IMG/VR virus record: IMGVR_UViG_3300017917_001940
Location: 32,001 to 96,000 of that record
Source: a virus
Length of the DNA stretch: 64,000 nt
Strand: one strand, 5' to 3'
Shown one piece after another: positions 31,350-60,604 of the stretch. The position numbers were made by a program, and so were the translations under genes. A model generated the notes under the pieces. That model did not search any database, was not told the DNA's origin, and saw nothing but the letters and a program-made list of their open reading frames with translations. Numbering within the stretch: the stretch's first letter is position 1; every line of letters starts with the position of its first letter.

Positions 31350-32054
31350 ATGTCAACAATCATAGCCGCACTGGTGATGGTACAAATCACCATAGCCTGT
31401 GTTACACTCTACTTACATAGAAGTCAGGCACATAGAGCAGTTGAGTTTCATCCTGTAGTCGCCCATTTCATGCGTTTTTGGTTGTGGTTAACCACAGGCA
31501 TGGTCACCCGGGAATGGGTAGCCATACACAGGAAACATCATCAAAAATCGGATACACCCGAAGATCCACATAGTCCAGCAGTGTATGGTATTTGGAGAGT
31601 ATTATTTGGAGGAGCACTATTATATGTTAAAGCTAAACAAGACAAAGGTATGGTTGATAAACTTGGGATTGGCTGTCCTAATGATTGGGTTGAGCGCAAT
31701 GTTTATAGTCGCTACCCTAGCACAGGAATCGCCCTCTTACTCATTATTGATACGCTAGTATTTGGCTGGACAGGCTTGCTAGTGTGGGGAATTCAAGTGC
31801 TTTGGATTCCATTTTGGGCCGCTGGTGTTATCAACGGGCTAGCACATTGGGTTGGTTATCGTAATGTAGATACTAAAGATACATCAAGAAACCTTTGGCC
31901 GTTGGCTGTATGGATCGGCGGCGAAGAATTACATAACGGGCATCACGCTAACGGCACCAGTCCAAAATTCAGCCAAAAGTGGTGGGAGTTTGATATCGGT
32001 TGGATGTATATACAAATTTTGCGAGCATTAGGTTTGGCAAAATTGAGAGTGTAA
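31350..32054 (+). CDS. membrane fatty acid (delta-9 acyl-CoA type) desaturase
   Basis: His boxes HRSQAH, HRKHH, HNGHH; KWWEFDIG. Confidence 0.92.
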   Translation: MSTIIAALVMVQITIACVTLYLHRSQAHRAVEFHPVVAHFMRFWLWLTTGMVTREWVAIHRKHHQKSDTPEDPHSPAVYGIWRVLFGGALLYVKAKQDKGMVDKLGIGCPNDWVERNVYSRYPSTGIALLLIIDTLVFGWTGLLVWGIQVLWIPFWAAGVINGLAHWVGYRNVDTKDTSRNLWPLAVWIGGEELHNGHHANGTSPKFSQKWWEFDIGWMYIQILRALGLAKLRV

Positions 32055-44638: not shown

Positions 44639-44644
44639 TGTATA

Positions 44645-44869
44645 ATGTATAAGGTATACTGGACAGGCCCAACAGATGAACCCTGTGCTCAAAACTTTGA
44701 GGACATGAGTGAGGCTCTGCAACACGCAGAGTTTCTACGTTCATCTGGTCGTAGGTTTGTTACTATGGTCAGTGAGAACCCTGATTCGGTGGGCAAACCG
44801 GGTGTGGACAGTGTGAAACATGGCCTGCTACCTGATGGTGAGCTATATACTTGGAAGAAACGTAGATAA
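44645..44869 (+). CDS. hypothetical protein
   Basis: ORF track. Confidence 0.65.
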   Translation: MYKVYWTGPTDEPCAQNFEDMSEALQHAEFLRSSGRRFVTMVSENPDSVGKPGVDSVKHGLLPDGELYTWKKRR

Positions 44870-45072
44870 TGGGACTAGGTCCTCCGGTTTGTACCAAATG
44901 TATGGTCATAGGACAGCTCAGTGGAGGTACTTGGGTTTGCCCTGTATGTTATAGCGTACGGTTAGGTAATCATTTGTGGGAGTTCACAGAAGAATATCAA
45001 AAGCGTTTTGAGGACAATACTAAATTTATGAAATTCGTGCAAGGAAAAGATGAGACTGGCAATAGCGAGTGA
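44869..45072 (+). CDS. small zinc-ribbon protein
   Basis: CTKC...CPVC. Confidence 0.6.
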   Translation: MGLGPPVCTKCMVIGQLSGGTWVCPVCYSVRLGNHLWEFTEEYQKRFEDNTKFMKFVQGKDETGNSE

Positions 45073-49037: not shown

Positions 49038-49406
49038 ATGACAGAATATCTTGAAGCATTTGGTACTACCCTTGTTGTTTTTGGTGTTGTTCTCTATGCG
49101 GTCATGTGGTTGATCGCACAGTGGCTCAAACGAGTGAACACTCGATTAGAAGCACAACTTGAAGCAATCCAAGAGGCCATTGAATCTAAATTTATCCAGT
49201 TAGATGTTGAGATTGACAACGGCATCTATTACTGCTATAATATAAAGGATCATGAATTTATATGCCAAGGTTCTACAGCCCGAGAGATCAAGGATGCGTT
49301 TGATGCTCGATTCCCAGGTAAAGTGGCTATCTTGAACAATGCTGACCGTGAGGAATTGGCTGACTTAAAAGCACAAATATTGGAGATGAAAACAAGTGAA
49401 AGCTAA
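49038..49406 (+). CDS. membrane-anchored hypothetical protein
   Basis: N-terminal TM, AGGAG RBS. Confidence 0.7.
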   Translation: MTEYLEAFGTTLVVFGVVLYAVMWLIAQWLKRVNTRLEAQLEAIQEAIESKFIQLDVEIDNGIYYCYNIKDHEFICQGSTAREIKDAFDARFPGKVAILNNADREELADLKAQILEMKTSES

Positions 49407-54432: not shown

Positions 54433-54624
54433 ATGATGAACGAAGAACGTCAATTAGTAGCACAAGCCGTCCTGGCTGGTGACTTGGATGCCGATCAGCT
54501 TACATGGGAAGAAGTTCAAGAAATTGAATTACTAGTAGCTGATTTGGTTGCTGAAAAAACATTGATTGAGCAGGCCAAGTTAGGCAAGAATGTATTTGCC
54601 CACTATTCGGATATCATTCAATGA
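54433..54624 (+). CDS. hypothetical protein
   Basis: ORF track. Confidence 0.6.
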   Translation: MMNEERQLVAQAVLAGDLDADQLTWEEVQEIELLVADLVAEKTLIEQAKLGKNVFAHYSDIIQ

Positions 54625-54956
54625 ATCATCAGTTTATTGTCATGTGGGATTGTTACGGGCTGGAAGTATGCTGTGATGTAACCGAAGCACAACAACGGGC
54701 AGTTTGGGAAGAACTGCAAGGCAAAGGTGTCAGTGAAAGTGGCATACCAAGTTTAGGTCACCTAACACTTCGTGCTCGCTACAACCCACAGAGACATTAT
54801 GAAATTTACATTATCGAAGCAGTTGAAGGCATTGGTGCTATCGACATTCGACAAATGTTTGAAGAAGATCCACAAGGTGCGGCTGATACAATTCGCCGCT
54901 TAGGTACTTGTGTTTACAGTGACAAGGTTGACAAGGAGAACCGTGTGATTGTATAA
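54621..54956 (+). CDS. hypothetical protein
   Basis: ORF track. Confidence 0.7.
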   Translation: MNHQFIVMWDCYGLEVCCDVTEAQQRAVWEELQGKGVSESGIPSLGHLTLRARYNPQRHYEIYIIEAVEGIGAIDIRQMFEEDPQGAADTIRRLGTCVYSDKVDKENRVIV

Positions 54957-54957
54957 T

Positions 54958-55213
54958 GGTTACTGGTTGCGGAGTAACGCCCGCTAGTCTGACCCGGACG
55001 AAAAGTGGAATGTTAACCACGGGTGGTTCCCGTTTAACCCTAACGGGCGTTGGCAGCACGACAGCGGCCCATGGTGAGGAGCGGATACCTCGTAAGCAGG
55101 CAGTTGGTCTATACTCGACTTTTAGGGCGATAATCCTAGATTGAAGCGGTGAGCTAGACAGCTTGAAGGTGGAAAGATAAATGTAACCGCCGGTGGGTGC
55201 AGAGCACCTTTTT
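54958..55213 (+). ncRNA. candidate structured non-coding RNA (~250 nt), family unknown
   Basis: TTGACA(54928)-N18-TATAAT(54952) upstream, ~54% GC by hand count, many hairpins, terminator GGTGC-AGA-GCACC-TTTTT. Confidence 0.6.
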
Positions 55214-55216
55214 CTT

Positions 55217-55270
55217 ATAAATCAATGACTTAGCTTATTGGTTGACCAAAATCACATAGTTTGCTATAAT
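55217..55270 (+). promoter_or_regulatory. IHF-like site + sigma70 promoter of helicase/methylase operon
   Basis: ATAAATCAATGACTTAG; TTGACC(55242)-N17-TATAAT. Confidence 0.75.
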
Positions 55271-55295: not shown

Positions 55296-57527
55296 ATGGC
55301 AAGAATGATGATTTATACCTGGAATGACCAGGACAATGCACTTGATGAAACAAAGATGGGAGACCACTTTGTGCCGTTTGACTGCACTCTGCAACAGGCA
55401 GAGCAACACACTATTGATTATATTCGAACTCAATTCCCTCGTCGTGCTCGACACTTTAATAGTGGTCGTGTGCTAATGAAAGTTTGGGACGTTAGTGATA
55501 TTGCTCGCAAGTTTAATAAATTTCGCAAGGGCAGTCACATTGACGATTTAATTCGCGAGGCATGTTTGGGGCGGCCAGGTACACAAGGTCGAGAATTCCA
55601 TGCACTGCCATTTGATGATACAAATGCCAAACTTGACAAGTATCTGTATAAAATGGGTACTCCACCACCAGTGGTTTGTTTGACTGCCTGGCAGGCTCGT
55701 AGTGCTGAACGTGTTATTGAAGATATTGCTAATGGTAAGAGAACTATCATGGCTGAGTTATGTGCTCGCTTTGGTAAAACTATTTGGGGTGGTGTATTAA
55801 CTCGCGAAACTAACGCTAATCTTACAGTGGTTGTCAGTTATGTGCTAACCAGCTTTGCCAGTTTTGAAAAAGAATTTGTGGGGTTTAAGCAATTTGCTGA
55901 CTTTGTTAGTGTGGACACCTCCGATCCAGATTATCAACAAGTAATTGATCAAGCACTTGCCGAAAACAAACAGGTAGTAGCATTTTTATCAATGTGTGTA
56001 GGCAGTAAACGTCAACAAAAAATCGACTATTTGTTTGGCTTAGACACAACTCGATTGGTGTTAATTGACGAAGCCGACTTTGGTGTACACAAAGCAGGAC
56101 AAGCCAAACCTTTAGTAGAAGCAAGAGATCCTAACGATGTTATTATTTTGATGACAGGAACTAACGCAGACAAAGCCTCTAGTTACTGGCCTGTGGATTC
56201 TGTTATCAGCGTGGTTTATCCTGAACTGTTAATTGAAAAAAGATTAACTGCCAACACCAAATATACCACTAGCCTCAAGCATTTTAAGATTGATCCTGCT
56301 CGACACAATTTAGTAGTTGATGTAGAATTCTATCAAATGGATTTAAAAAGTGCTGTGGAATTTGCACGAGCAACTGATCCAGAAGCATTTGTTGAAGATG
56401 GTATCTACTTACCCAGTTGGACCAAGTTTGCCGCTAATCCTATTAAAGCCAAGGGTTTCTGGACTCGTATGCTACAGTCGGTATTCCTGGGTCAGCATGG
56501 GTGGGACGAACTCAACGTAGAATACCAGTTTGGAGAAGTCGCCGATCATCGGGTAGCTATGATGTTCTTAAGTGGTAGCATGAGAAATACCAACTTAGAT
56601 ATTGCGGCCAAACTGGCTCAACAGGCATTGCCAGGATATGTTGTAGTACCTATCTACGGCGAAGAGATGACCAATCGTTCAGCAGAGAAAGATGTTAAAG
56701 ATGCTATCGAATTGGCCCGTGAAAAAAATCAAAGCGTATTGTTACTAAGTGCTGGTATGGCTCAGCGTAGTTTTAGCGTAGGGGCAATCACAGAACTTTA
56801 TCTTGCGTATGATGAAGGCGATAACGGTGCCACAATACAAAAAATCAGTCGAGCGTTGACTCCAGAAGAACAAGGTAAAGTTGGTCGTATTGTTAGTTTA
56901 AGTTTTGATCCTAATCGTGATGACAAGTTTGATTCACTGTTGATTGAAACAGCATTAAACTATAAACGTAGCCGTTGTATTAAATCAGCTAAAGAAGCCA
57001 TGCGTGATGTACTACACACAGTAGATATCTTCCGCTGTACAGCCGATGGTTCAATCAAACTAGACGGCGATGATTACTTAGAACAGGCAATTGAACGTAA
57101 AAGCGTCAGCCGAGTGGTAGGTAAAGTTGCAGACATTACTAAATTATCTGTAGCTGAACTAACAGCACTAGCCGACGGTAATGCCAACGCATTTAGAGCC
57201 GCTAAACAACAAGCCGCAGAGCGTGGTAAAACTCGAGCTCGTAGCGTTCCAGGAAGTAAAAATAAAAACAATTCAGAAGAGATGGCCACAGCCAAACTAA
57301 TTGCTCAAGCCCGTGAAGTTATCACAACCATTGTTGAGAATTTGGATATCATTGTGCAAGGAACTGGTAGTCACAACATCAATCGAGCATTTAAACTAAT
57401 TGAAAACAACCCCGAACACCAACAGGCAGTCGCAGAAGAGTTTGGTGTTGAGTTTGAACTAATTAAAGAGCTATTTGATCACGGAGTTATTAACACCGAT
57501 TTGGTCGAATTGCAAGTTGATCATTAA
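55296..57527 (+). CDS. SF2 helicase/restriction-type ATPase with probable N-terminal GIY-YIG-like domain
   Basis: Q-motif LTAWQ, Walker A CARFGKT, Walker B LIDEADFG, MTGT, QKISRALT. Confidence 0.8.
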   Translation: MARMMIYTWNDQDNALDETKMGDHFVPFDCTLQQAEQHTIDYIRTQFPRRARHFNSGRVLMKVWDVSDIARKFNKFRKGSHIDDLIREACLGRPGTQGREFHALPFDDTNAKLDKYLYKMGTPPPVVCLTAWQARSAERVIEDIANGKRTIMAELCARFGKTIWGGVLTRETNANLTVVVSYVLTSFASFEKEFVGFKQFADFVSVDTSDPDYQQVIDQALAENKQVVAFLSMCVGSKRQQKIDYLFGLDTTRLVLIDEADFGVHKAGQAKPLVEARDPNDVIILMTGTNADKASSYWPVDSVISVVYPELLIEKRLTANTKYTTSLKHFKIDPARHNLVVDVEFYQMDLKSAVEFARATDPEAFVEDGIYLPSWTKFAANPIKAKGFWTRMLQSVFLGQHGWDELNVEYQFGEVADHRVAMMFLSGSMRNTNLDIAAKLAQQALPGYVVVPIYGEEMTNRSAEKDVKDAIELAREKNQSVLLLSAGMAQRSFSVGAITELYLAYDEGDNGATIQKISRALTPEEQGKVGRIVSLSFDPNRDDKFDSLLIETALNYKRSRCIKSAKEAMRDVLHTVDIFRCTADGSIKLDGDDYLEQAIERKSVSRVVGKVADITKLSVAELTALADGNANAFRAAKQQAAERGKTRARSVPGSKNKNNSEEMATAKLIAQAREVITTIVENLDIIVQGTGSHNINRAFKLIENNPEHQQAVAEEFGVEFELIKELFDHGVINTDLVELQVDH

Positions 57528-60342: not shown

Positions 60343-60604
60343 TGAAAAACTTTATCGTAGGTACTGTTTTTGGTATTGTTATTTGTACTATTGGATTTGG
60401 TGGCGTGGCTCGTTTGGTTGACGCTGGAGTAATTAAGGTTCAGGAAGTGGCTAAAAAGGCCACAGAATAACCAAAAGAACATATAATAGTTGACAGGAAA
60501 TACCCGTTCAGCTATAATATATGTATATGCTAAGAAATTGGCATATTAGTAGTAAAATTAATTTTATTAAACTTGTAAGGCAACTTAAGAAAGGCAACAC
60601 AAAA

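Follow-up and report, generated by a model that had tools for sequence, protein, structure and literature searches.

A probable structured RNA gene of a jumbo-phage fragment and its relatives among the tRNA genes of giant lake phages

The window analyzed here, a stretch of 64,000 nucleotides (nt) corresponding to positions 32,001 to 96,000 of the IMG/VR virus record IMGVR_UViG_3300017917_001940, is part of a contig of 129,829 bases with a GC content of 39.7%, for which CheckV estimates a completeness of 38%, thus identifying it as a fragment of a jumbo phage. On the plus strand, a gene for a protein of 111 amino acids (aa) occupies positions 54621-54956, and further downstream lies a gene for a 743-aa helicase-like protein (55296-57527). 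The RNA gene between them, at 54963-55208 (+), is the subject of the present work. Comparison with other viral contigs shows that it belongs to a large, uncatalogued family of phage RNAs of ~200 nt, which are usually located among the tRNA genes of giant lake phages. The comparative sequence data make it very probable that the gene is genuine, that it encodes a structured RNA and that it belongs to this family; in the window, it would give rise to a stable and pseudoknotted RNA spanning approximately 54963-55215 (+).

An earlier note, made from the sequence alone, had proposed at this place a stand-alone structured RNA gene of unknown family, enclosed by a promoter and a terminator within a GC-rich segment, and these boundaries were confirmed. 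The sigma-70 promoter (54928-54957, +) matches the consensus at all 12 of 12 positions of its -35 and -10 hexamers, which are separated by an 18-nt spacer; the promoter is embedded in the 3' end of the 111-aa gene, whose stop codon is overlapped by the -10 hexamer. Perfect promoters of this type occur three times in the window, compared to 0.09 expected by chance, the other two being situated at 49213-49241 and 60490-60518; judging by these consensus matches, early transcription in this phage evidently depends on strong promoters of the host type. The intrinsic terminator (55195-55215, +) is composed of a stem-loop at 55195-55209 with an AGA loop, followed by a U run. It extends the conserved 3' GCAGAGCA motif of the family and is retained in most relatives of the window's sub-lineage. 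The segment 54963-55215 (+) would represent a free-standing sigma-70 transcription unit, provided with both a consensus promoter and a terminator. The RNA stretch itself contains 55% GC, and the portion 54963-55162 ranks second in GC content among the 200-nt windows of the entire contig (55.5%, versus a mean of 39.7% with a standard deviation of 4.5); among the top five such windows checked, it alone is devoid of an open reading frame (ORF) of 80 aa or more. Another ORF-poor gap, at 44639-44961, likewise lacks an ORF of at least 80 aa and has a GC content of 47% versus 39.7% for the contig; it yielded neither an Rfam match at gathering thresholds nor a match to the family model described below.

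The relatives of the RNA were traced via homologues of the 743-aa gene, then via one of the viral loci (L054; loci are designated by L and a number), and subsequently by means of degenerate DNA patterns. Conventional searches were unproductive: blastn of the window stretch against 50,697 phage records gave no match, exact 19-25-mers of the window RNA had no matches in viral contigs, blastn and nhmmer of the RNA against 47 loci carrying a 743-aa homologue returned nothing, and blastn of a family member from a tRNA array against the phage collection matched the flanking tRNA alone. L054 belongs to the closer relatives, drawn from a large protein collection, whose 743-aa homologues have 83-90% identity. 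In this locus, a homologue of the 111-aa gene is followed by ~260 nt which have short motifs in common with the window, and whose hairpins differ in sequence from those of the window yet remain complementary. Degenerate patterns from the comparison of these two sequences recovered 11 viral contigs and then 10 metagenome contigs, and a pattern for one of the hairpins (P5) located the family in at least 120 viral contigs. Members measure 188-267 nt, with a median of 214 nt, including a flank of ~14 nt.

A covariance model of 204 positions, termed R1, was built from 57 family sequences, the window being excluded. The model matches the window at 54963-55208 (+) with a score of 95.7 bits (E 2.5e-26), covering model positions 1-204 of 204, and this is its sole match in both the window and the whole contig. 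The window RNA is the lowest-scoring and most divergent full-length member of the family, the canonical members of which score 168-232 bits. Its sequence nevertheless contains all five invariant motifs, i.e., the ACC loop of P2, the GGGUGG after P3, the UGGCA loop of P6, the CCGCCGG that precedes the 3' strand of Pa, and the GCAGAGCA tail. The match begins 6 nt after the -10 hexamer, at the expected transcription start, and the promoter would therefore yield directly the 5' end that is made by processing in the tRNA arrays.

The consensus fold was derived from mutual information, using an alignment (A2) of 57 non-redundant members produced by MAFFT, with the window and L054 left out. A second, model-fitted alignment (A3) comprises 73 sequences including the window, and it leans to the structure and is less independent than A2. 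The consensus has five hairpins (P1, P2, P3, P5 and P6) and a nested 3' domain (Pa-P8-P7), together with a pseudoknot (PK1) connecting the P2 loop with the GGGU after P3. In A2, 96.9% of the cells form a standard pair, versus 85.0 +/- 0.4% in shuffled alignments, and 21 pairs are changed on both sides; the corresponding values in A3 are 99.0%, 82.8 +/- 0.4% and 27 pairs. Cells with double changes number 285 in A2, where shuffles give 77 and slid controls no more than 51, and 409 in A3, where the respective values are 105 and at most 54. The frequent G-U pairs indicate an RNA on the plus strand only, and the junctions and loops are near-invariant although the members average 70% identity. The homologue search and covariation check suggested in the earlier note have revealed a family whose pairing covaries, and its claim of a structured RNA gene, with a predicted promoter and terminator of its own, is supported.

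The helices were mapped onto the window through R1, all on the plus strand. P1 (54969-54984, paired 54969-72/54981-84) is a hairpin of 4 base pairs (bp) with a conserved AGUAACG-type loop, and all 5 of its family pairs change on both sides. P2 (54987-54999, paired 54987-91/54995-99) has 5 bp and an invariant ACC loop; 99.7% of its cells are paired, and both-side changes occur in 2 pairs. P3 (55005-55020, paired 55005-08/55017-20) has 4 bp and an 8-nt loop, with all 4 pairs changing on both sides in the family. The 6-bp P5 (55029-55047, paired 55029-34/55042-47, CCCGTT/AACGGG) differs in the window from the family consensus on both strands, with retention of the pairing; its covariation is supplied by L206 and L207, in which both strands are likewise changed relative to the consensus and remain paired. 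P6 (55048-55060, paired 55048-50/55058-60) has 3 bp and a conserved 7-nt loop of the UGGCA type. The long-range helix Pa (55067-55198, paired 55067-72/55193-98), which closes the 3' domain, is 100% paired and displays both-side changes in 5 of 6 pairs; all six are present in the window, where double substitutions preserve two of them. P8 (55081-55190, paired 55081-84/55187-90) also covaries and encloses the apical domain at 55085-55186. All seven of these helices are formed by standard pairs in the window, save for a single A-C at the loop-proximal end of P1. The inferred helix PK1 (54992-55024), by which the P2 loop (54992-54995) would pair with the GGGU at 55021-55024, is the least secure part of the fold: it is invariant and 100% paired in the 57 sequences, and one compensatory change, from A-U to G-C, is found in L054 and L195.

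Several candidate pairings were discarded in the course of the analysis. A long-range pairing of GGUGGUA with UACCGCC was rejected due to 6 U-U mismatches; for the G of the UACCGCC strand, covariation with the GCGG strand is perfect (CG 70, UA 7, AU 6), leading to a GCGG/CCGC helix, both sides of which are changed in L054. A helix at the 5' end (columns 5-7/110-112) was left out, being 84% paired and showing no double changes, and a 3' mini-hairpin in the array copies of the family frequently contains a C-A mismatch while Pa stays paired. Compared to the conserved fold, the helices proposed in the earlier note stood up in part. Two of its seven agree with the family structure, namely CCCGTT/AACGGG, which is P5, and TAGG/CCTA, which lies within the apical domain. 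The other five (GAGG/CCTC, GCGGT/ACCGC, AGCT/AGCT, AACCA/TGGTT and GTTACT/AGTAAC) conflict with covarying helices, as do both of its long-range options, CGCCCG(54978)/CGGGCG(55044) and GGTTAC(54958)/GTAACC(55183). P1, P2, P3, P6, Pa and P8 were missing from its list.

The window copy differs from the canonical form in its apical region, where the usual hairpin (P7 and a variable tip, ~55 nt) is replaced by a domain of ~100 nt. Among eight window-type sequences, comprising the window and seven relatives, this domain has 31 predicted pairs, 14 of which exhibit compensatory changes; on this comparative sequence evidence the predicted enlarged domain is a variant of the sub-lineage. The same sub-lineage is characterized by the position of the RNA: in 13 of 15 loci it is located behind a homologue of the 111-aa gene, and in 12 of the 15 it starts 2-6 nt after the stop codon of this homologue (57-100% identity). 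In L195-L201 and L203 (70-79% identity) and in L054, the RNA lies 2-6 nt after the stop and has an enlarged, window-like apical domain; in L204-L207 (57-63% identity) it occurs at the same place in the canonical form, with 169-182 bits. In L202 (83% identity) the 5' end of the RNA is found ~170 nt further downstream, at the end of the contig, and L049 and L050 (55% identity) are without the RNA. The genes downstream of the RNA vary between the loci of the sub-lineage; what is conserved beside the RNA in this phage lineage is the upstream 111-aa gene, not the helicase operon. Searches of Pfam, PHROG and the Atlas provided no lead for the 111-aa protein.

The family as a whole has a different setting. 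At least five tRNA genes are present in 110 of the 125 family loci, and 59 copies start no more than 10 nt after a tRNA of the same strand, many of them 0-3 nt after its CCA end, while 52 copies have a tRNA within 20 nt downstream. This location is typical of the family but not universal: 10 of the 125 loci contain no tRNA, and none was detected in the window or in the 130-kb contig. Among near-complete phage genomes, one of 342 kb carries one copy and another of 525 kb carries two. In 185,579 bacterial and archaeal species genomes, the first pattern gave no hits and a looser pattern gave 117, of which 80 were tested against the model and none matched, although a scan for exact patterns is a limited negative in both cases.

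The arrays that carry the family also harbour other RNAs. A GOLLD RNA of 201.7 bits with an embedded tRNA was found at L081:1864-2326, and a permuted tmRNA of betaproteobacterial type at L189:4087-4531; tmRNA calls were made by ARAGORN in five family loci. Some protein genes recur near the RNA within sub-lineages, albeit not across the family (e.g., in L085, L117, L169, L170, L180 and L185): a small MazG-like ORF follows ~26 nt after the RNA in nine loci, and a GroES-like gene is situated ~800 nt downstream in 25 loci, both names having been assigned by eye from the sequence. In L070, a second, weak R1 match (2334-2500, 29.3 bits) lies ~430 nt upstream of the main copy, and a similar case occurs at L172:974-1225. 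The weak match in L070 has a P1 and P2 module nearly identical to that of the family and diverges beyond it; the match reflects a copy that is truncated or chimeric, or else a distinct RNA employing the same 5' module.

No catalogued RNA family accounts for these sequences. At gathering thresholds, the window gave no match to Rfam 15, whose families include RNase P, tmRNA, SRP, 6S, GOLLD, ROOL, riboswitches and ribozymes. With E values of up to 10, its best sub-threshold match reached 15.3 bits versus 35.8 required, a chance-level result, and nothing relevant was obtained for the family members of L054, L059 and L161. In nine further loci, no Rfam family reached its gathering score at the family copy, and ARAGORN found neither a tRNA nor a tmRNA in the window RNA. 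The exclusion of RNase P, tmRNA, SRP and introns in the earlier note is supported. Its designation of the family as unknown needs qualification: there is indeed no Rfam match, and a description of the family was not found in the literature searched, yet the RNA is not an orphan but a member of a large family of RNAs from phage tRNA arrays.

The general kind, i.e., a structured phage RNA accompanying tRNA arrays, has precedents in T4 rnaC/rnaD, GOLLD and ROOL, without homology to any of them. The T4 RNAs rnaC and rnaD (species 1 and 2) are stable RNAs released by processing of the tRNA-cluster transcript. As annotated in NC_000866, they are likewise non-tRNA RNAs inside a phage tRNA cluster, but with lengths of 139 and 119 nt they are shorter than the ~200-250 nt of the family RNA, and the window copy, unlike them, stands apart from any tRNA cluster, between a promoter and a terminator of its own. 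When R1 was run with filters off over NC_000866 68000-76000, its best score was 5.7 bits (E 0.44), at a position other than rnaC/rnaD. GOLLD (RF02032) and ROOL are likewise elaborately folded phage RNAs beside tRNA genes, many of them from lake metagenomes, and GOLLD shares a tRNA array with a family member in L081; they are, however, much larger (the GOLLD match in L081 extends over ~460 nt), and the family has no Rfam match to them. Cryo-EM has shown that GOLLD and ROOL form homo-oligomeric complexes (PMC12286853). Phage-borne tmRNA is another non-tRNA RNA of the same arrays (L189) and is translation-related, whereas the family RNA has neither a tRNA-like acceptor/T arm nor a tag reading frame. 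By analogy, 6S RNA and other trans-acting, protein-binding RNAs may be compared with the window RNA in their size (~200 nt), their own promoter and terminator, and their conserved internal loops; 6S differs in that it forms one long interrupted hairpin, while the family RNA is multi-branched and pseudoknotted and has no Rfam match. The features that are new here comprise the free-standing form with promoter and terminator, the position behind the 111-aa gene, the enlarged and covarying apical domain, and the corrected long-range pairing.

The following scenario may be envisaged for the origin of the window copy. In most carriers, the family RNA would be co-transcribed with the tRNA array and then cut out. 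In the lineage of the window, the gene would have moved to an early-gene block directly behind the 111-aa gene, and there it would have gained the larger apical domain as well as an intrinsic terminator built on the 3' motif. The perfect sigma-70 promoter of the window may then allow the host RNA polymerase to make the mature-length RNA of ~250 nt directly. As to function, we tentatively favour, at somewhat less than even chances, a role in trans, whereby the RNA would serve as a structured partner (scaffold, decoy or cofactor) of a conserved component of tRNA or translation biology, rather than acting via the adjacent genes. This suggestion is based on the company of the family, which consists of tRNAs, tmRNA and GOLLD, and on its near-invariant junctions and loops, which point to the recognition of a conserved macromolecule. 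Since no protein gene travels with the family, the partner would more likely be a component of the host or a distant one of the phage.

Several observations weigh against these interpretations. The alignment was seeded by the P5 pattern, so that the invariance of P5 in that set is uninformative. The minimum free energy of the RNA is no better than that of shuffled sequences (z +0.82), and the evidence for structure is consequently comparative and not thermodynamic. The 5' arm of the terminator overlaps the 3' strand of Pa, such that the terminator hairpin and Pa are mutually exclusive; the terminator stem competes with Pa for 55195-55198, and the mature fold would therefore require refolding. 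The perfect -35 hexamer of the window is not kept in the relatives, in which the RNA may be merely the processed 3' end of the transcript of the upstream operon. Finally, clustering of the neighbouring genes of the 125 family loci disclosed no consistently adjacent protein partner.

Other functions may be considered for the same RNA. The strongest of these, although unlikely, is an anti-defence decoy or sponge, in which the RNA would mimic a substrate, or would bind and block a nuclease or sensor that the host directs against tRNAs or phage RNA. Phage tRNA arrays are thought to counter tRNA-directed defences, and a decoy would explain why the RNA travels with them; the usual array location, the early-type sigma-70 promoter of the window and the strongly conserved loops and junctions, which suggest a specific binding partner, are all compatible with such a role. 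Yet neither ARAGORN nor Rfam recognizes a tRNA-like arm in the RNA, and neither defence nor counter-defence genes are regular neighbours of it in the 125 loci. A cis-acting element of processing or termination, by which a structured spacer would direct cleavage or protect transcript ends, appears still less likely. In the arrays the RNA indeed abuts the ends of tRNAs, in the relatives of the window it lies 2-6 nt behind the 111-aa stop codon without a consensus promoter, and its 3' motif doubles as a terminator. On the other hand, a molecule of ~200 nt with eight covarying helices, a pseudoknot and near-invariant junctions goes far beyond the needs of a spacer or terminator, most tRNA junctions of the same arrays do without the RNA, and the window copy constitutes a separate unit with its own consensus promoter and terminator.

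The compact pseudoknotted core, the invariant unpaired nucleotides and the precise ends beside tRNAs also recall a ribozyme, e.g., a self-processing or tRNA-processing catalyst. We regard this as improbable to a greater degree than the cis element: there was no match to a ribozyme in Rfam even at E values of up to 10, the P4 and CR motifs of RNase P are absent on inspection, and the ends can be explained by RNase P together with host 3' processing of the flanking tRNAs. Whatever likelihood is not taken up by a tRNA/translation role, a decoy, a cis element or a ribozyme falls to mechanisms of some other kind.

The earlier note had further considered the RNA as a partner of the nuclease-helicase/methylase operon; it would then be a guide, scaffold or regulator for the downstream 743-aa gene and methylase. 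The RNA is located 80 nt upstream of the operon's own promoter, and in L054 the RNA and a 743-aa homologue occur within 1.2 kb of each other. Nevertheless, the lack of co-occurrence has largely refuted this connection, which now seems very improbable. In the 47 viral loci with a 743-aa homologue of 32-61% identity, there was no match to the RNA model nearby and mostly no comparable upstream gap, and the close relatives L051-L053 and L055-L058 (83-90% identity to the 743-aa protein) likewise had no model match nearby. Of 55 loci in all (32-90% identity), L054 is the only one with the RNA near the gene, and there a 350-aa gene is placed in between. The family copies found by patterns lie mostly in tRNA arrays, with no helicase-like gene among their commonest neighbours, and the operon has its own promoter behind the RNA terminator. 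The weakest proposal, a small protein encoded by the 62-aa ORF (54956-55144, +), is hardly credible and the ORF is judged spurious: the ORF begins with an ATG at 54956 that shares bases with the stop codon of the upstream 111-aa gene, an arrangement common in translational coupling, but this start codon precedes the expected start of transcription and none of the relatives has it, the frame is broken by 4-8 indels versus each relative, the substitutions are spread evenly over the codon positions (e.g., 19/24/20) without third-position bias, neither Pfam nor PHROG gave a match, and the region covaries as RNA helices. The earlier note had named conservation of this ORF with synonymous bias as the finding that would speak against an RNA gene, and the opposite was found; the lack of a real ORF is confirmed.

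With regard to the neighbouring region, the 743-aa gene that had been described as a nuclease-helicase shows no Pfam match and, among the PHROGs, a weak match to one without an assigned function. Its protein has more than 500 homologues at E <1e-30, and the upstream neighbours of these genes are highly variable even at 90% identity; judging from such comparisons, this uncharacterised protein seems to be widespread in jumbo phages and to be encoded at a junction prone to recombination. The motif AATCAATGACTTAGC is located at 55221-55235, right behind the terminator of the RNA gene and ~7 nt before the -35 hexamer of the next promoter (55242-55270). It occurs at the same place in L201, and in L203 with two changes.

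The present work places the window RNA in a family that is widespread in uncultivated large phages and absent from Rfam, and it does away with an attractive but mistaken connection to the neighbouring helicase-methylase operon. Where structured RNAs of ~200 nt combine a pseudoknot with near-invariant junctions and dense covariation, a specific biochemical function usually comes to light, and the occurrence of the gene as an apparently separate early unit, in a lineage in which it stands off the tRNA array, argues that the RNA is itself functional rather than a spacer. The window RNA offers a compact, self-contained construct for expression, probing and pull-down. It is conceivable, though on balance doubtful, that the family constitutes a new functional class of trans-acting phage RNA, comparable in standing to tmRNA or 6S RNA, which giant phages deploy together with their tRNAs, either to commandeer or safeguard a conserved step in the tRNA or translation biology of the host or to neutralise immunity directed at tRNAs. 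If this were the case, the window copy would show that the function can be exerted by a free-standing early gene, independent of tRNA-array processing.

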